Of a stretch of 51,465 nt of DNA, positions 26,253 to 51,155 are shown piece by piece. Below the pieces are notes generated by a model. It searched no databases, had not been told where the DNA came from, and was given only the letters and a program-made list of their open reading frames with translations. Numbering within the stretch: the first letter of the stretch is position 1; every line of letters begins with the position of its first letter. The stretch is from a virus. The DNA is taken from UHGV virus genome UHGV-0241168; one strand, 5' to 3'. The translations under genes and the position numbers were made by a program.

Positions 26253-26463
26253 TAATCTCGATGCGCTCAATCTCGTCCTCCGTAAATCCAATCAACAAGC
26301 CGTGTTCATTCTCCACATCGAACTCCAGAAATTCATTTCCATCATCATCAAAATCGTAGTCATACCCATAGAGTTCCCCGGTCGTTACACGTCCACTTGT
26401 GGAAAAAACTTTAATTTTCTTCCCAAAGTAAATCGTGGGATCGTTAATTATCATTTTTTCCAC
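26245..26463 (-). CDS. Putative immunity protein for the MuF toxin
   Basis: Small acidic beta protein overlapping the toxin gene stop. Confidence 0.6.
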   Translation of the reverse strand: MEKMIINDPTIYFGKKIKVFSTSGRVTTGELYGYDYDFDDDGNEFLEFDVENEHGLLIGFTEDEIERIEIIG

Positions 26464-28013
26464 CCCCCTGAAAACGGAACACCATGCGTACCGCTTTTGC
26501 TGTAATGGATTTTGATACTTCTTGCAATTATTATATCACCGTTTCTGTTAACTGTATAGCCAATTTCTTTTCCGGCATCAATAATTTCTGTGTTTTTCCA
26601 CTTTGTAAAATCATCTGTAAGATTGATTTTTCCGCTACCTGCCTTCGCGTTTATGATCGCTTGCAACTCCTCCACAGAAACCGTTATCACGCTTCTGCCC
26701 GGTGTAGCAGTGCCGGCCATATGCCGCGCCTGTTTCTCCGGATTGATCTCTAATGGATATTCACCGTTGCGGATCGCCTGCCTGATTGGCGCTTCTGCAT
26801 CACGCTGCACTTTGAGTGCCGAGGCGGTTTGTTCGGATTCAATATCCGTATAGGTAACCTGCATCCTTTCCCGCTGCAATGGCAAACCCGCAGCTTCGCT
26901 AAAATCTCTGTATTCCTTGTTCAGACGCCGGATGCGGGCTGTCACCGTCTGGGCGTCCTCTTCAAGCCCTGCCGCCTTATATGCAGTCTGTTCCCGCTTC
27001 AGCTTTCGGATGGTCCGCTCGATCTGGCGTTGCTTTTGTGTAGCTTCATAAGCTGTATAACGTTTGCCCTCAAACTCCACATCATGCCCGTCGTCAATGT
27101 GTTCCAGTTCTTTGTCGGTATACGTCCGCTCCATCACGCCGTCTACAAAAGCGGTCCTGATATGACGGCAGTTGGCTCCCTCTAAACCATCCACATAGCC
27201 AAGTCCGCATACTTCATAGATACTTGGGTATTTGTCTCCGGTTCTAACAGAATACACCCGGCCCTGCCACGCTTTATGGTTCTGCCATCCAGTACCTTGA
27301 TCTCGTGCCCCGATGTGGGCTGATACTTCAAAATATGGCGTTTCTAAGTATTCCGCACTCTGCTCCGTATATTTGGCACAGAGCTGGGAGACGCCCGTCA
27401 TCACTGCTCGGCGGGCTGCTACGTCGATTTGGTCTCGGTGTCCGCTCTCATAAGCCACGATCTTGATGCCGCTGTCTGCAAGCTGCTTAACAGTATTTCT
27501 AATAGCTTGGTTATAGCTGACTGCTCCGCTCATAACCTGCATCTCCGCGTTATCCAGCGCCCATTGATAAGCACGGGCTGGTGCCAGCATCGTCCGCCCA
27601 CTGTCCACCAGAAAGCCCATGGATCGGGTCAGGTTGCTGACCTCTCTTTGTGCCTGCGCCGTAATCGCGGCAATATCCATAGCGCTTACCAATGTCTCAG
27701 GAGCCGTCATCCCCGCAAGGTCTATGACCTCTTTGTAATACCGCTGGTTACGTTCCACCACGTCCTCCAGCAGTCTATTGAGCCGTTGCTCGCTGATATT
27801 GGCCGTTCGCTGGATGGCCCTCTCTATCTCTTTTAGGCCAATTCCATGTGACCGCAGAGCCCGGATATCCTGCACCGTGACCTCATTCAGTTCTCCGGCC
27901 AGTTTCAGACGAGAGCATATTTCATCAAGGAGCGTCTCTTCCAGGCTTCGGAACAACTCCGCTAATTCTTCCGGAAGCGCATCCAAAACTTCTGGAGAAA
28001 ACGGGTATCTCAT
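26451..28013 (-). CDS. Minor capsid (MuF-type) protein with C-terminal Ntox50-like polymorphic toxin
   Basis: VSAH.GAR, H..WQG.VY, GL.GANCRH, YEATQKQR..ER; C-terminal KQARH...KIHYSKSGTHGVP. Confidence 0.82.
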   Translation of the reverse strand: MRYPFSPEVLDALPEELAELFRSLEETLLDEICSRLKLAGELNEVTVQDIRALRSHGIGLKEIERAIQRTANISEQRLNRLLEDVVERNQRYYKEVIDLAGMTAPETLVSAMDIAAITAQAQREVSNLTRSMGFLVDSGRTMLAPARAYQWALDNAEMQVMSGAVSYNQAIRNTVKQLADSGIKIVAYESGHRDQIDVAARRAVMTGVSQLCAKYTEQSAEYLETPYFEVSAHIGARDQGTGWQNHKAWQGRVYSVRTGDKYPSIYEVCGLGYVDGLEGANCRHIRTAFVDGVMERTYTDKELEHIDDGHDVEFEGKRYTAYEATQKQRQIERTIRKLKREQTAYKAAGLEEDAQTVTARIRRLNKEYRDFSEAAGLPLQRERMQVTYTDIESEQTASALKVQRDAEAPIRQAIRNGEYPLEINPEKQARHMAGTATPGRSVITVSVEELQAIINAKAGSGKINLTDDFTKWKNTEIIDAGKEIGYTVNRNGDIIIARSIKIHYSKSGTHGVPFSGGWKK

Positions 28014-29392
28014 TCAATCTCATTCTCTCCTTCGTTCGTCATGTCCTCCATTTTCGGCAGCATTTTCTTGGCTGTGGCCTCGTCCTCTCCATACCATTTT
28101 GCCCGGTATTCCCAATCATTCATCACGCCCATGGAAACATCCTGCCGGTCGTTAGCCCGCTCCTTTTCCTTTGCGTCAGCGTCATCAAGAACGCTGTCTC
28201 CCCAAGAATAGGTGACTTCATAGCCTCCAGCAGGCGCCAGATTGTACAGTGTAGCATACACGTCCATGGCATAGATCAGGCTGTCAAAGGTATGCTGTAA
28301 CGCTTTTTGAATGCTATCGATAGTGATAAACATCCGCTGTTTGCTGTTGCGAATCTCTGTCGCCGTCTTTTCAACACTTTGTGGGTCTGACAGCGTGCCA
28401 TAAGAGAGGCCAACCTGGAACTCAATTTGTTTCAGAATATTTTGTAGCCCTCGATAAAGCGGTTCGTCCCGAAAAGAGGGTTCAAACTGTTCAAAAAACT
28501 TGCCGTCCCTGGAGAACGGAGCAATCTCAAACAAGCGTTTGTCGAAGTCCCTTGCTACTGTTTCTGTAGCGTCCATAAATATCTTTCTCTGGCCGCTCTT
28601 GTACTCCCACCGGATCAAATCCCACTGCTCGTCCGCTCTTTGGATGAGGTCTACCGCGGCCCCTCCATATACGGACACACCGGTTTTATCATCGGTGTCC
28701 ACATTGTTTGACTGCGGGGGCTTAAAATAGGCAAAGAGCGGTCCTTCCAGGTTTTCTATCTTGACTTCTGGCGGGATATCCGCCCAATCCGGAACCTCAT
28801 TCAAAGCGGCTGCAGGTCCCACGGAACCGCTGCTGTCGCTGCGGTATGCTTTGTTCTGGATGGTATATGTAGTACCCTCTAAGTTGTGGTATTCCAGCCG
28901 GACATAGTATTTATCATTGGCTTGTGCTTTTTCACGGAACACGCCTCCAACACAGGTACCAGAAGCATCAAATTTTGTAGGCTGAAACGCTGCCGCGCTA
29001 GTTCCGTCCACCAAAATACGGTTCCCATAAACATACGGTTTCAGCGCAATACCACCTGTTGCAAGCCCAAGCTCAAGCTGCTGTAGGAACCTTTCTTGCG
29101 CTGCTTGAAACTGCTCGTTGTGATAGTCCGCCCTGGCACTGCCCGCAATGCTTACTGTGAGTTCCGCCAGCGTCGGGCGGGCAATCTCTCTACAGATCGC
29201 TGCTGGCAGGCCCATCGGAACCACAGGAGGAACCGCCCAGGGCGGTCGGTTGACATACATAGCAAACCACAGGTTGATGTTCCGCTCCATTGTCTGTCCC
29301 GTGGCAGGCTTAACGCCAAACTCCCGCTGAGTCACCGCCTGCGGAAATATGAAGTTTTTCAAGCGGCCCAACCAGCCGACAAAAACACTCAT
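28010..29392 (-). CDS. Portal protein (A118/SPP1-like)
   Basis: 460 aa after terminase; GLSYGTL, KTATEI, WYGEDE.TA. Confidence 0.88.
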   Translation of the reverse strand: MSVFVGWLGRLKNFIFPQAVTQREFGVKPATGQTMERNINLWFAMYVNRPPWAVPPVVPMGLPAAICREIARPTLAELTVSIAGSARADYHNEQFQAAQERFLQQLELGLATGGIALKPYVYGNRILVDGTSAAAFQPTKFDASGTCVGGVFREKAQANDKYYVRLEYHNLEGTTYTIQNKAYRSDSSGSVGPAAALNEVPDWADIPPEVKIENLEGPLFAYFKPPQSNNVDTDDKTGVSVYGGAAVDLIQRADEQWDLIRWEYKSGQRKIFMDATETVARDFDKRLFEIAPFSRDGKFFEQFEPSFRDEPLYRGLQNILKQIEFQVGLSYGTLSDPQSVEKTATEIRNSKQRMFITIDSIQKALQHTFDSLIYAMDVYATLYNLAPAGGYEVTYSWGDSVLDDADAKEKERANDRQDVSMGVMNDWEYRAKWYGEDEATAKKMLPKMEDMTNEGENEIE

Positions 29393-30983: not shown

Positions 30984-31619
30984 TTATAGTTCCATATTGG
31001 GGTAAACTTTTTCCCACACGTTCACGTGGTAAGTATTGACTTCGCCATAATTGGCATCGAAAATCTTTTTAACTCCATATCCCTGTCGTTGGCTTTCGAG
31101 TTTGAGCTTCCGCCAGTCAAAAACCTTATATGATACTCCATTCAGATGTGCTACTCGTTTGATGGAATACCATTCCTTGCTCCTATCCAGCTCTGTCTCC
31201 AGCGCCTTTCTCTTATCCTGTTCGTCTCTTAGCGCAGTAAGCAGTTTGATGCCAAACTCCGGAGAGTTTATCATCTTATCGATCGTGTCCGAGGTCATGT
31301 AAGCCCCGTGCTTGCGAATGCTGGGTAATACCTCACTCGTCACCCAGCGCTTGAACTTCTTGGCCCCGGGAAGCTTGCTGGAAAGGACGAGGGAATACAG
31401 GCCGCTCTCGTTGATAAGTACAATCGGTGTCCCGTTGACGCTGAACGTTTCGTTCACCGTCTTATCCTCATCATCAACGTGGTCACGGATTGCCTTTTGT
31501 GGGTTCGTGTAACCCAGTGCTAATGCCACATCCTTACCAACCAGCAATGGCTCCCCGTCCAATCCCACAGTACGAATCTCCCCAAACTCAGGGTTGTTAA
31601 AAATCATCAAGTCGTTCAT
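30984..31619 (-). CDS. BRO-N domain (antirepressor-like) protein
   Basis: FNNPEFGEIRT, GKDVA.ALGY, INESGLYSLV, FKRWVTSEVLPSIRKHGAY. Confidence 0.92.
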   Translation of the reverse strand: MNDLMIFNNPEFGEIRTVGLDGEPLLVGKDVALALGYTNPQKAIRDHVDDEDKTVNETFSVNGTPIVLINESGLYSLVLSSKLPGAKKFKRWVTSEVLPSIRKHGAYMTSDTIDKMINSPEFGIKLLTALRDEQDKRKALETELDRSKEWYSIKRVAHLNGVSYKVFDWRKLKLESQRQGYGVKKIFDANYGEVNTYHVNVWEKVYPNMEL

Positions 31620-31624
31620 GGATA

Positions 31625-31729
31625 TACCGCCTTTCTGAATTTTCGTTTCCACCATTTATGTTGACCCAGGGAAGAGGAGTAAGGCGGCACCTCCCTTTTC
31701 AGCCCGTCGGCCTATCCCCGGTATTCAAC
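31625..31729 (-). promoter_or_regulatory. Structured 5' leader with anti-Shine-Dalgarno loop upstream of the BRO-N gene
   Basis: Multi-stem fold; loop TGCCGCCTT (31681-31689) complementary to RBS AAGGCGGTA (31625-31633). Confidence 0.55.
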
Positions 31730-47531: not shown

Positions 47532-47627
47532 AGTTTATAAACCTCGCTTTTTTATTTTCCTAAAAATAGGTGCGCTGTTGTGCTCACTTACTTGCCATGG
47601 TAGAATGTGGGCGAAAGGGGTGTCTTT

Positions 47628-48308
47628 ATGGGTTATCTTTGTCCGTACTGTAATCACACTTGTTTTGACAATGGAGAAATCACAACAACTTACTATCCTT
47701 CACACGATAGCGCAGATTTGCCAGAAATGAGCGAAAAGGATGCTATAACCAATGCTGTTCAACTTGATTTCAGTACTTGTCCAAACTGTGGAAAAACCGC
47801 CATTAGGATGATTCCGTATTGGAAAAATGGAAATATGAAATTCAGTTTTTCCTACCCTCCAACTATGGCAATCCACCTCCCTGAATATATTCCAGAGGCA
47901 ATCCGTTCTGATTATGAAGAAGCTGTGTCCATAGTAGATCTAAGCCCAAAAGCGTCCGCTACATTGGCACGCCGCTGCTTACAGGGAATGATCCACGATT
48001 TTTGGAAGATTAAAGAGAAAAACTTAAATGCAGAAATCACAGCACTCAGAGGAAAAGTCTCTTCTTCCCAATGGAAAGCGATAGACGGGCTTCGCAAAAT
48101 CGGAAACATTGGGGCACATATGGAAAAAGATGTTCAACTGATTATTGATGTTGACCCAGGAGAAGCAAAAAAACTAATCAAGTTGATTGAACTTTTGATT
48201 GAAAAATGGTATATTTCCCGATATGATGAAGAACAACTTTTCGATGAAATATCAAGTATGGCTGATGAAAAAGAATCTAAACGAAACTTAGGACCCAGTG
48301 GCAAGTAA
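47628..48308 (+). CDS. DUF4145 (HEPN-like) domain moron
   Basis: Zn ribbon N-terminus; DYEEA, SPKASATLARRCLQ, LRKIGNIGAH; promoter TTGTGC-17-TAGAAT at 47578-47606. Confidence 0.85.
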   Translation: MGYLCPYCNHTCFDNGEITTTYYPSHDSADLPEMSEKDAITNAVQLDFSTCPNCGKTAIRMIPYWKNGNMKFSFSYPPTMAIHLPEYIPEAIRSDYEEAVSIVDLSPKASATLARRCLQGMIHDFWKIKEKNLNAEITALRGKVSSSQWKAIDGLRKIGNIGAHMEKDVQLIIDVDPGEAKKLIKLIELLIEKWYISRYDEEQLFDEISSMADEKESKRNLGPSGK

Positions 48309-48724: not shown

Positions 48725-48970
48725 ATGAGTTTCCCATCGTTCAAAGATTTTCGTGAAACACTTACAGAAGAACGATTATCAGAAATTTTTTCTGATATAT
48801 ACCGAATAGATGTCATTGAAATAAATGGATTGACGCCAGAAAACATAAATGCTTTTATTTCAAAGCTTAGATATGACACGATCGGTGCTTCTATTAGTGC
48901 GTCTCTCGATCTGCTTGAAGCCTATCATGAGTGGCTTTCACAAGAACTTTCGGGTCAATATCTACCTTGA
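48725..48970 (+). CDS. Small moron protein
   Basis: TTGTCC-17-TATACT promoter at 48673-48701, AAAGGAGGTG RBS; ends LLEAYHEWL. Confidence 0.75.
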   Translation: MSFPSFKDFRETLTEERLSEIFSDIYRIDVIEINGLTPENINAFISKLRYDTIGASISASLDLLEAYHEWLSQELSGQYLP

Positions 48971-49120
48971 TTTCTCCATTCCATCGCTGGCCCTGTAGTG
49001 CAAGTACAAGGTCAGCGATTTCTTTTGGCTCACCCGTAATTTTGATTTCTATTGGTTTCACCTCCACTCCACTCTATTTGCGTGTGCAGTTATTGTTGGC
49101 TTTGCTTCTGCTGCCCTCTA

Positions 49121-49345
49121 TCATTGGAGGACTTCCTTTTCTCCGTTGGTGCTGCTGTCTTCTGAAAGCAGCTCGTCCAGTGTTATGCCAAAAAAGTTAG
49201 ACACTGCTGTAGCTTTTTCAAGCGTTGGGCTTGATGTTGCCCATTTTGAAATAGTGCTATTGCCAAACCCCAGCCTTTTTTCAAGGCCAGATATTGTGAT
49301 TCCATGCTTCTTGCAAAGAATCTCAATATTTTTAGTAATCATCAT
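49121..49345 (-). CDS. Cro-like XRE repressor
   Basis: ITISGLEKRLGFGNSTISKW..SSPT; divergent from cI. Confidence 0.88.
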   Translation of the reverse strand: MMITKNIEILCKKHGITISGLEKRLGFGNSTISKWATSSPTLEKATAVSNFFGITLDELLSEDSSTNGEKEVLQ

Positions 49346-49355
49346 AACCTCCTTC

Positions 49356-49510
49356 TTGACAAACATGCGAAAATATTCTAAACTATTGCTGTCAACAAGC
49401 AGAATATTTTCTATTGCAACACCAAGACTCATGGTGTCTTTTGTGTTGCTCTCTATTTGCTATTATATGAATATTTTTGTAATTGTCAAGTATTTTTGAG
49501 AAAAGTTTCG
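49356..49510. promoter_or_regulatory. Genetic switch: face-to-face promoters and operators
   Basis: Plus TTGACA-17-TAAACT (49356-49384); minus TTGACA-16-TATAAT (49462-49489); related 12-mers at 49368, 49401, 49468, 49499. Confidence 0.7.
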
Positions 49511-49530
49511 TAATTCGAGGAGGTGGTTTT

Positions 49531-49869
49531 TTGTCACTACTTGAAAGAATAAGAGAACTGCGAGAAGCAAACGGAAACATATCAATTAACCGACTTGAAA
49601 AAGAGGCCGGATTAACACGGGGTTCTATGTCTAAATGGGATAACCATGCTCCTAGCTATGATAAGCTAAAAAAAGTAGCTGATTATTTTAATATTCCTGT
49701 TTCTGATTTGACAGAAGAACAAAAAGAAAATACCGCCCCCATTTCTGAGGACGGTAAAGCTGAAATCTTATCTATTTTTGATTCCTTATCTCTTGATAGG
49801 CGTTCCAAATTGATTGAACTGGCTCGTCTTTATTTAGCCGATCAGCGCAAAAGCGAAGAAATGAAATAA
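49531..49869 (+). CDS. CI-like XRE repressor lacking an S24 autopeptidase domain
   Basis: TTG start after GGAGGTGG; HTH N-terminus; short helical C-terminus; 112 aa. Confidence 0.88.
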   Translation: MSLLERIRELREANGNISINRLEKEAGLTRGSMSKWDNHAPSYDKLKKVADYFNIPVSDLTEEQKENTAPISEDGKAEILSIFDSLSLDRRSKLIELARLYLADQRKSEEMK

Positions 49870-49933
49870 AATCATTTTCATTATCGACTCTTTCGCAGAG
49901 CAATTCACCGCAGGTCATATCTCGTTCATCCAT
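49772..49933 (-). CDS. Putative SOS-induced antirepressor (53 aa) overlapping the cI 3' end
   Basis: Manual translation MDERDMTCGELLCERVDNENDFISFLRFCADRLNKDEPVQSIWNAYQEIRNQK; GAGGAGG RBS; own promoter and SOS box. Confidence 0.6.
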   Translation of the reverse strand: MDERDMTCGELLCERVDNENDFISFLRFCADRLNKDEPVQSIWNAYQEIRNQK

Positions 49934-49957
49934 ATTCCAGTTGCCCCTCCTCGTTCA

Positions 49958-50014
49958 AGAACATTTGTTCTAGTGATTTGATAATATCATAGCACCGAGG
50001 ATAATATAAGGCAA
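49958..50014 (-). promoter_or_regulatory. sigmaA promoter with LexA/DinR (SOS) box
   Basis: TTGCCT-17-TATGAT with TG extension; AGAACATTTGTTCT at 49958-49971 matches GAAC-N4-GTTC. Confidence 0.72.
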
Positions 50015-50111
50015 TCAGCAGATTTTCACAATTCTTTCCATTTATATTTTGTATTGACCTATATCTAGTGGTCTTTACTTTTATACCACAATTTTATTAA
50101 GGAGGCGCACA

Positions 50112-51155
50112 ATGCCAAAAATTCCAAAATATTATGTGCGTCCGGATGGTCTACATGAATCTATCTTGCGTATAAAAATGCCGGACGGAACAACGAAACG
50201 AAAGGCATTCCGTGGAAAGACGGATAAAGAGGTCTGGGAAAAGATTAAAGCATATAATCGAGATGTAGATAATCGCCCAACTTGTGTTCTGTTTAGTGTC
50301 TGTGCAGATTCTTGGTGGGATGAAATCGAACCAACTTTGGAACATAATACCGCGAAAAGTTATCGGCCAGCTCTTATGCGTGCAAGAGATCACTTTGGAA
50401 AATATCCAGCGGATCAAATAACAGCGCAGGATATTGATCGGTACATTAAAGATTTTTCGGTAACGAGAGCTCGAAAAACCGTCGTCACTCAGTTGCAAGT
50501 AATCCGGCAAATTATGCGGAAAGCGGAGGTCGATGGATATATCAAATATAATCCGGCTCAAGCTATTAAGCCTCCACGCAATTTACGGCAAAAGCGTCGC
50601 GATGCTCCTGATAAAAATCAGATAGCCCTCATAAAAGCTTCTACAGAGCTTCCATTTGGTCTTTTTGCCTATTTAATCTATCATACCGGGTGTCGTCGCG
50701 GAGAGGCGTTAGCGTTAACCGGAGGCGACATTGACAGAAAAAACAAATTAATACATATCACAAAATCAGTTTACTATATGGGCAACCAGCCACATATTAA
50801 ACAGCCGAAAACAGAAAAAGGATTCCGGGATGTTCCTTTGTTGGACGCATTAGATAAACTGCTCCCAAAACGACTCCCGAAAGGATATTTGTTTGCAGAG
50901 CCAGACGGTGGATTATTAACTAATGACCATTTTACTGTACTTTATAATAGGTATCGTGATGAATCCGGAGTAACCGTTACCCCACATCAAATTCGGCATG
51001 GCTACGCTACTGCTCTATTTGAAAATGGTATCGAGCCAAAAACTGCGCAAGTTCTTCTGGGGCACGCCCAGCTTTCTACCACGATGGACATCTATACACA
51101 TGTTTGCTCCGATATAATTGAAGAGGCAGCGAAGAAGATGAACGATGGATTTTAA
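50112..51155 (+). CDS. int: Tyrosine integrase
   Basis: HTGCRRGEAL (R), K in QPKT, HQIRH, LLGH, TMDIYTH. Confidence 0.95.
   Translation: MPKIPKYYVRPDGLHESILRIKMPDGTTKRKAFRGKTDKEVWEKIKAYNRDVDNRPTCVLFSVCADSWWDEIEPTLEHNTAKSYRPALMRARDHFGKYPADQITAQDIDRYIKDFSVTRARKTVVTQLQVIRQIMRKAEVDGYIKYNPAQAIKPPRNLRQKRRDAPDKNQIALIKASTELPFGLFAYLIYHTGCRRGEALALTGGDIDRKNKLIHITKSVYYMGNQPHIKQPKTEKGFRDVPLLDALDKLLPKRLPKGYLFAEPDGGLLTNDHFTVLYNRYRDESGVTVTPHQIRHGYATALFENGIEPKTAQVLLGHAQLSTTMDIYTHVCSDIIEEAAKKMNDGF

Follow-up and report, generated by a model that had tools for sequence, protein, structure and literature searches.

Organisation of the cro-cI-int region

The window, i.e. the whole 51,465-nt stretch of DNA that was analysed (UHGV-0241168), is by ORF annotation a temperate phage genome with terminase, capsid, tail, amidase and replication genes. 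Its right end carries cro and cI followed by a tyrosine integrase gene. The features of this region are:

49121..49345, minus strand: cro-like HTH gene, 74 aa (Pfam HTH_3, E 2.6e-8), opening the leftward lytic operon, in a position corresponding to AimL
49462..49489, minus strand: consensus promoter TTGACA-16-TATAAT of cro and the lytic operon (12/12 match)
49531..49869, plus strand: cI repressor gene, TTG start, 112 aa
49721..49756, minus strand: intrinsic terminator with a stem of 11 bp (49756-49731) followed by a U-tract, within CI codons ~64-76
49772..49933, minus strand: 53-aa ORF, predicted antirepressor, the final 98 nt being antisense to codons of the CI C-terminus
49946..49952, minus strand: RBS GAGGAGG, 12 nt ahead of the ATG (a long spacing)
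49958..49971, no strand assigned: predicted LexA-type operator AGAAC-AAAT-GTTCT, plus-strand reading AGAACATTTGTTCT
49986..50014, minus strand: leftward promoter, -35 TTGCCT (50014-50009), 17-nt spacer, -10 TATGAT (49991-49986)
50112..51155, plus strand: tyrosine integrase gene, replaced in relatives by a different integrase or another gene

The box described below, the gene content and the occurrence in faeces and wastewater suggest a Clostridia-type gut bacterium as host. GenBank phages contained no match to the DNA of the module or to the peptide, and the nearest GenBank capsid, 76% identical, belongs to an unannotated human faecal phage record. Several other genes of the window are worth recording. 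A minor capsid protein (Phage_min_cap2; 26451-28013, minus strand) carries a C-terminal Ntox50 toxin domain in a MuF-type polymorphic toxin arrangement. A Bro-N domain protein ahead of the terminase genes (30984-31655, minus strand) is a second antirepressor-like annotation, situated in the late region. Within the early lytic operon, a DUF4145 protein (47607-48308, plus strand, i.e. the cI strand) and an 81-aa protein (phrog_7728; 48725-48970, plus strand) apparently have their own promoters and are moron-like.

The first-pass annotation had described CI as a 112-aa protein without an S24 autocleavage domain, and this description holds. Pfam matched HTH families only (residues 5-62) and detected no Peptidase_S24 domain of the lambda-type autocleaving CI, and the structure model, composed of a predicted HTH domain (1-61), a disordered linker (64-71) and a C-terminal helical hairpin (73-85/88-110), is likewise free of a peptidase. 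Foldseek matches of this model all had E-values above 0.001 and were driven by the HTH, including SinR/SinI (1b0n, rank 8, E 0.012) and AimC-AimX (9sf2, rank 37, E 0.11). The reported absence of an ImmA-like gene between cI and int was also borne out. As int alone comes after cI, the gap is too small for ImmA, and no metalloprotease-sized ORF lies in it; the 51 other window ORFs scanned, a subset of the total, gave no ImmA/IrrE or AimR/TPR-type Pfam match. The TTGACA-16-TATAAT promoter is the presumed target of CI, and clear operator repeats were not resolved in the cro-cI gap. Rfam returned no matches in 49000-50300.

A complete leftward gene ends inside cI

Promoter, RBS and 53-aa ORF are each found where they had been placed, and the coordinates agree with the 98-nt antisense overlap between the ORF and the 3' end of cI. 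The -10 element is of the TG-extended type. Upstream of the ORF, 140 nt are followed by int on the opposite strand. The ORF consists of a 12-codon leader (MDERDMTCGELL) and a body with two amphipathic helices (residues 19-34 and 39-52), whose conserved hydrophobic face comprises F22, I23, F25, L26, F28, C29 and L33 in the first and V39, I42, W43 and Y46 in the second. Modelling predicted three helices (mean pLDDT 79). Neither Pfam nor PHROGs contained a matching family, the Foldseek search with the peptide model gave no match at E <= 0.001, and the ESM Atlas yielded no usable match.

The unit is closed by an intrinsic terminator that was absent from the first-pass annotation. It starts 16 nt past the stop codon of the ORF, inside cI, and its fold is significant (z = -3.9; none of 200 shuffles folded equally well). 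A terminator after the ORF stop was present in all nine divergent loci that were folded, and compensatory changes were found in five of the ten stem pairs among 13 relatives. With a terminator just past the ORF, the leftward unit is complete as a gene and measures about 255 nt. Between 49869 and ~49721 its predicted transcript is complementary to cI. A contig from a chicken-gut metatranscriptome spans 49711-49947, near the predicted transcript and with no loose end, and a second RNA run contained two 151-nt pieces of the region; both data sets are unstranded, so that strand and level are unreadable, and since the runs had been selected for containing the region we excluded these contigs from the evidence.

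Conservation and dual coding of the small ORF

A survey of related cI loci established that the ORF is conserved, as the first-pass annotation required of a functional gene. The peptide has 22 near homologues, and a profile search retrieved 125 clusters at 50% identity (median 60 aa), 93 of them not longer than 70 aa. All 13 distinct relatives examined combine an SD sequence, an ATG and a frame of 50-61 aa, often behind unrelated upstream DNA. In the overlap, codon position 3 of CI corresponds to codon position 2 of the peptide. Across nine divergent loci, CI is 59% identical in this part, and where two CI proteins share a residue they use the identical codon in 363 of 508 pairs (71%), compared with 34% expected. 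The peptide identity of 0.54 in these loci compares with 0.19 +/- 0.02 under synonymous shuffling. The peptide frame is open in nine of nine loci, an outcome reached in 3 of 3000 simulations, and each of the two remaining antisense frames is interrupted by stops in all nine.

Both the 13-locus and the 9-locus set were retrieved with the peptide as query and consist of related loci, and thus the constraint statistics overstate independence. For this reason the search was repeated with the CI C-terminal alignment, which led to 38 loci that have DNA at this position and contain the peptide core. Six of them have a stop at W43 (L274, L275, L277, L278, L283 and L284). This clade comprises large phages in which the start is not clear, and it possibly represents a decaying or an N-terminally extended version. 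In metagenome loci, the peptide was frameshifted in 2 of 26 (L234 and L236), which may be assembly errors. Taken together, the 53-aa ORF is a real gene under selection.

A short CI can occur without the cassette, since eight loci with an HTH like that of the window (L005, L009, L011, L014-L017 and L019) lack an SD-led antisense ORF as well as a box, and no ImmA is visible nearby. Four other HTH relatives (L029, L041, L045 and L050) carry an ImmA-like gene with an EExxH motif at the position of the peptide.

A LexA-type box follows the leftward promoter

The palindrome reported just past the predicted start site is present at 49958-49971. It begins 14 nt after the -10 element and lies at about +8 to +21 relative to the predicted start site. 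The GAAC-N4-GTTC core occurs once in the window compared with 0.75 expected, which is chance level. Hence, the core alone is unremarkable and the weight is carried by the position and conservation of the box.

Its previous assignment as a LexA-type box agrees with the presumed host lineage. The nearest available genome, G001, contains a related prophage and served as a proxy for the true host. Its lexA gene has GAAC-AAAT-GTTT over the -35 region, and among 30 lexA genes of the order, 16 are preceded by RAAC-N4-GTTY (0.47 in shuffles). In a matrix built from lexA-promoter sites, the box ranks second among all positions of the window. We therefore predict from these sequence matches that the palindrome is a LexA operator of the host-lineage type. 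The top-scoring site of the same matrix (28528-28541, CAAACAAGCGTTTG) lies inside a structural gene and probably arose by chance. The ~255 nt preceding recA of G001 contain no box, and the peptide family was encountered in just 2 of 301 genomes from the family of G001 (one of them a weak match).

Conservation of the box stood the test in the near clade and failed beyond it. Relatives that retain the box, L098 and L100, have exchanged the promoter for TTGCAC/TTGCGC...TATACT, and the spacer of the box varies between AAAT and AAGT. Most distant relatives have no box. Among 21 peptide core types, three have the box, one a degenerate version, eight a CTRCCGGYAG-like motif and nine neither within 150 nt. 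As the box is confined to the near clade, LexA control is not a family-wide property.

A viral scan for box, RBS and ATG yielded 97 loci with 69 distinct ORFs, 39 of which encode 25-75 aa. Eighteen of these 39 converge on a short HTH gene, two of them doubtfully. Other phages also contain LexA-boxed helical ORFs of 33-45 aa that converge on a short cI with little or no overlap (L105, L106, L116, L117, L126, L134, L138, L149 and L172), which appear to be a non-overlapping version of the same switch.

A second leader motif

The motif CTRCCGGYAG, which is absent from the window, is a palindrome located 4-14 nt after TATAAT, at the predicted start site. A viral scan found it in 112 loci with 87 distinct matches, and in 21 of 37 cases with a start call and enough DNA a small ORF converges on a short HTH gene. 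Such ORFs of 41-60 aa converging on a short cI were seen in L287 (911-950), L293, L297, L305, L314, L315, L319, L324, L333, L336, L339, L344, L345, L348, L359, L363 and others. L339 and L340 represent two tandem units of CCGG leader, peptide and cI, about 950 nt apart on one phage contig. The inner pair of the palindrome covaries (12 G-C and 8 A-T of 21), and many loci allow its 3' arm to base-pair with the RBS region. Rfam gave no match in 20 loci of this class. The motif may be an operator or an RNA switch.

The motif is not a variant LexA box, as it occurred in none of 30 lexA promoters. A host-wide regulon behind TATAAT was not supported: 18 of 301 genomes had one match each, compared with about nine in the reversed control.

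Three blocks recombine at fixed points

Comparison of the loci revealed that the HTH, the CI C-terminal domain (CTD) with the peptide body, and the promoter/box/leader segment recombine as three blocks. Two boundaries were mapped:

49699-49724: left module boundary, at the terminator, breakpoints in 4 of 18 loci
49895..49898, no strand assigned: right recombination boundary between the leader and the CTD/peptide-body block, alignments end here in 10 of 18 loci

A leader scan retrieved 19 viral loci. When L076 and the window are added to these, six peptide bodies are seen behind a common MDERD(M/V)T(C)(G/V)ELL leader, and in five of the six the overlap with the cognate CI C-terminal type measures 38-98 nt. 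In the exception, L211, leader and peptide lie ~420 nt from cI with other small ORFs between them. This lack of overlap fits a protein that acts in trans. L106, L117 and L126 similarly dispense with the overlap, which is thus not obligatory.

Peptide identity tracks the identity of the CI C-terminus, not that of the HTH. L203 and L216 are 90% identical in the HTH, 18% in the CTD and 10% in the peptide; the window and L202 share CTD and peptide at 100% and the HTH at 40%. Through the overlap, CTD and peptide body form one indivisible block. The first-pass annotation had proposed that shared DNA locks repressor and antirepressor together during module exchange. Discordant identities and common breakpoints support this for the CTD and the peptide body; it does not apply to the HTH and the promoter/box, which are exchanged independently. 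In L227 (1565-2332), CI CTD, terminator and peptide are fused in frame to a long, repeat-like ORF without HTH, and this join is either an assembly artefact or a genuine recombination event at the linker.

Sister cassettes that share the leader of the window encode peptides that resemble their own CI C-terminus (z 8.3 in L205, 4.1 in L218 and 2.9 in L215). Resemblance was seen in 4 of 15 rows of this leader class (L205, L209, L215 and L218), a set that includes near-duplicates of the window type, in 16 of 23 pairs of the CCGG class and in 1 of 11 remaining LexA-boxed pairs. The peptide of the window is not similar to the C-terminus of its cognate CI (z 0.7, no match by hhalign). Given these values and three predicted helices, sequence mimicry is not seen in the window pair.

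Discussion

At the border of cI and int, the window contains a compact leftward gene that is read into the repressor gene and stops in the codons of the CI linker. We consider it likely, with a probability of about 0.7, that this gene is a DNA-damage-inducible, LexA-gated antirepressor, predicted to bind the C-terminal hairpin of CI and thereby to wake the prophage. This reading is based on the conservation and dual coding of the ORF, on the lineage-type LexA box and on a layout shared with phage phi106. In the lysogen, host LexA would occupy the box past the start site and keep the promoter shut. Upon DNA damage, RecA would trigger self-cleavage of LexA, and an RNA of ~255 nt ending at the hairpin in the cI linker would be produced. 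By analogy with AimX/AimC and SinI/SinR, the helices of the peptide might then replace the second CI CTD and break the CI dimer, and the TTGACA-16-TATAAT promoter of cro and the lytic operon would be freed.

The closest known system in terms of architecture is the AimX module of arbitrium phages. According to Kabel et al. (10.1101/2025.11.23.689978), AimX of phi106 is a 29-aa protein encoded behind a LexA site with a 30-bp antisense overlap with aimC, and it is an antirepressor that forms a heterodimer with the repressor as judged by two-hybrid and SEC-MALS experiments; some aimX transcripts continue through aimC. The authors liken AimX-AimC to SinI-SinR and report few close homologues of aimC/aimL outside arbitrium loci in Bacillus, with Clostridia unmentioned. 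LexA control of aimX is described in a second report (10.1101/2021.09.20.460909), and PDB entries 9sf2 and 9iaq belong to this system.

The AimX module is marked by an 80-140-aa HTH repressor without autocleavage, a divergent cro-like gene and a 29-80-aa helical ORF at the 3' end of the repressor gene, with aimR and aimP upstream on the strand of the small ORF. The window has a 112-aa CI, a 74-aa HTH protein and a 53-aa ORF with three predicted helices; AimR and AimP are absent, which places it outside the arbitrium module. Both this system and the phi106/phiW23 modules pair a short non-cleavable HTH repressor with helical CTD and a divergent cro-like gene with a small ORF that converges on or overlaps the repressor 3' end and has a LexA site just upstream, and in both the peptide varies with the repressor type. 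Unlike phi106, with its AimR/AimP, the ORF of the window is driven by a sigma-A-type promoter of its own. It overlaps cI by 98 nt instead of the 30 bp of phi106, and its predicted transcript stops at the terminator in the cI linker; some transcripts of aimX, in contrast, cross aimC. A further difference from the AimX module is that HTH, CTD/peptide body and sensor leader of the window type exchange at fixed points. The likeness is one of architecture, and we claim no sequence homology.

Other switches share individual traits. The C-terminal helical oligomerisation domain of SinR is disabled by a small helical mimic, as discussed by Kabel et al. (10.1101/2025.11.23.689978). CI of the window resembles SinR from B. 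subtilis (PDB 1b0n) in combining an HTH with a C-terminal helical domain, and by analogy it may be disabled by a small protein in the same way. In contrast to the sister peptides, which resemble the C-terminus of their CI, the peptide of the window has no such likeness in sequence and in this respect differs from SinI. SinI-SinR is a chromosomal biofilm switch under Spo0A control, and its genes do not overlap. Tum of phage 186, AntC of N15 and GfoA/GftA of the Gifsy phages are LexA-controlled antirepressors of non-cleavable repressors. LexA gating of an antirepressor, predicted here from the box, would be common to these phages and the window; they differ in having a proteobacterial LexA box and separate genes that do not overlap cI, and no PHROG or Pfam match connects the peptide with the Tum, AntC or Gifsy families. 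ImmR of ICEBs1 and phi105 is a short non-autocleaving HTH repressor encoded next to int that depends on the metalloprotease ImmA. The repressor of the window is likewise short, non-autocleaving and adjacent to int, but it has no adjoining metalloprotease gene, which is present in L029, L041, L045 and L050.

Other readings of the leftward gene deserve consideration. The peptide might be produced in the SOS response but bind LexA, RecA or another host protein, or tune CI without inactivating it. GIL01 gp7 and AriS of Listeria are parallels for such partners, and the lack of similarity between the peptide and its own CI C-terminus, like the lack of a fold or family match, would suit this option. 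Yet the peptide body changes wholly whenever the CI C-terminal type changes, which is hard to reconcile with one conserved host target, and sister peptides do resemble CI C-termini. We regard a partner other than CI, or mere tuning of CI, as unlikely.

Alternatively, the transcript could act as an RNA, either by pairing with the 3' ~150 nt of the cI mRNA or through polymerase collision, with the peptide being secondary. The promoter points into cI, the transcript is complementary to 49869-~49721, and an RNA function was an earlier proposal for aimX (recounted by Kabel et al., 10.1101/2025.11.23.689978). The terminator, however, ends the transcript far from the RBS of cI, the antisense frame is constrained at the amino-acid level, and versions without overlap exist (L211, L106, L117, L126, L134 and L138). 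Moreover, recoded and start-to-stop alleles of phi106/phiW23 showed that the protein and not the RNA is active. Antisense silencing of cI, which the first-pass annotation had offered besides peptide binding, is thus weakened by the linker terminator and by the start-to-stop mutants described for phi106/phiW23, and we think it very improbable that the RNA is the effector.

Similarly slim are the prospects of an antirepressor gene whose palindrome works in the RNA or binds another factor, such that induction may be independent of LexA. In the window, L098 and L100, base pairing is possible between the RBS region and the 3' half of the box, comparable alternative pairing is found in many CCGG-class leaders, and the same peptide family also occurs without the box. 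Against this, the fold of the leader is no better than that of shuffled sequences (z -1.1), and the motif matches the lexA box of the lineage with a varying spacer (AAAT/AAGT). An RBS-occluding hairpin in the window leader was rejected at the same value (z -1.1), which is not significant. Finally, the ORF might be a mere shadow of conserved CI C-terminal codons, with promoter, box and RBS being accidental. The expected 0.75 box cores per window, the long RBS spacing and the 10-53% of the synonymous shuffles of a locus that leave one frame open by chance would suit this notion. It is largely refuted by codon constraint, covariation in the terminator and the recurrence of a correctly spaced SD and ATG in upstream sequences that are unrelated, and we attach next to no probability to it.

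The LexA-gated antirepressor gene thus remains the preferred reading. Its switch logic has precedents; the novelty lies in the terminator within the linker, the exchange of three blocks and the second type of leader. In the literature covered, which includes few subscription journals, neither the cassette nor the linker terminator or the CCGG motif is described outside arbitrium. The gene would extend the logic of AimX beyond arbitrium and Bacillus. Tentatively, and with less confidence, we propose that phages of gut Clostridia-type bacteria might possess a mix-and-match switch composed of an HTH that sets operator specificity, a dual-coded lock-and-key block of CTD and peptide with a linker terminator, and a sensor that is either the LexA box or the widespread CTRCCGGYAG, the latter maybe responding to signals other than DNA damage. 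If such a three-block switch exists, phages would change their waking signal by exchanging about 100 bases.

Many gut prophages have short repressors without a self-cleavage domain or ImmA, and their induction therefore cannot be read from annotation. The combination of a linker terminator, an antisense small ORF and an operator after the -10 element provides a recognisable signature. Cognate pairs of CI and peptide are candidate orthogonal switches, and the second leader motif offers a handle on which non-SOS signals induce gut prophages.
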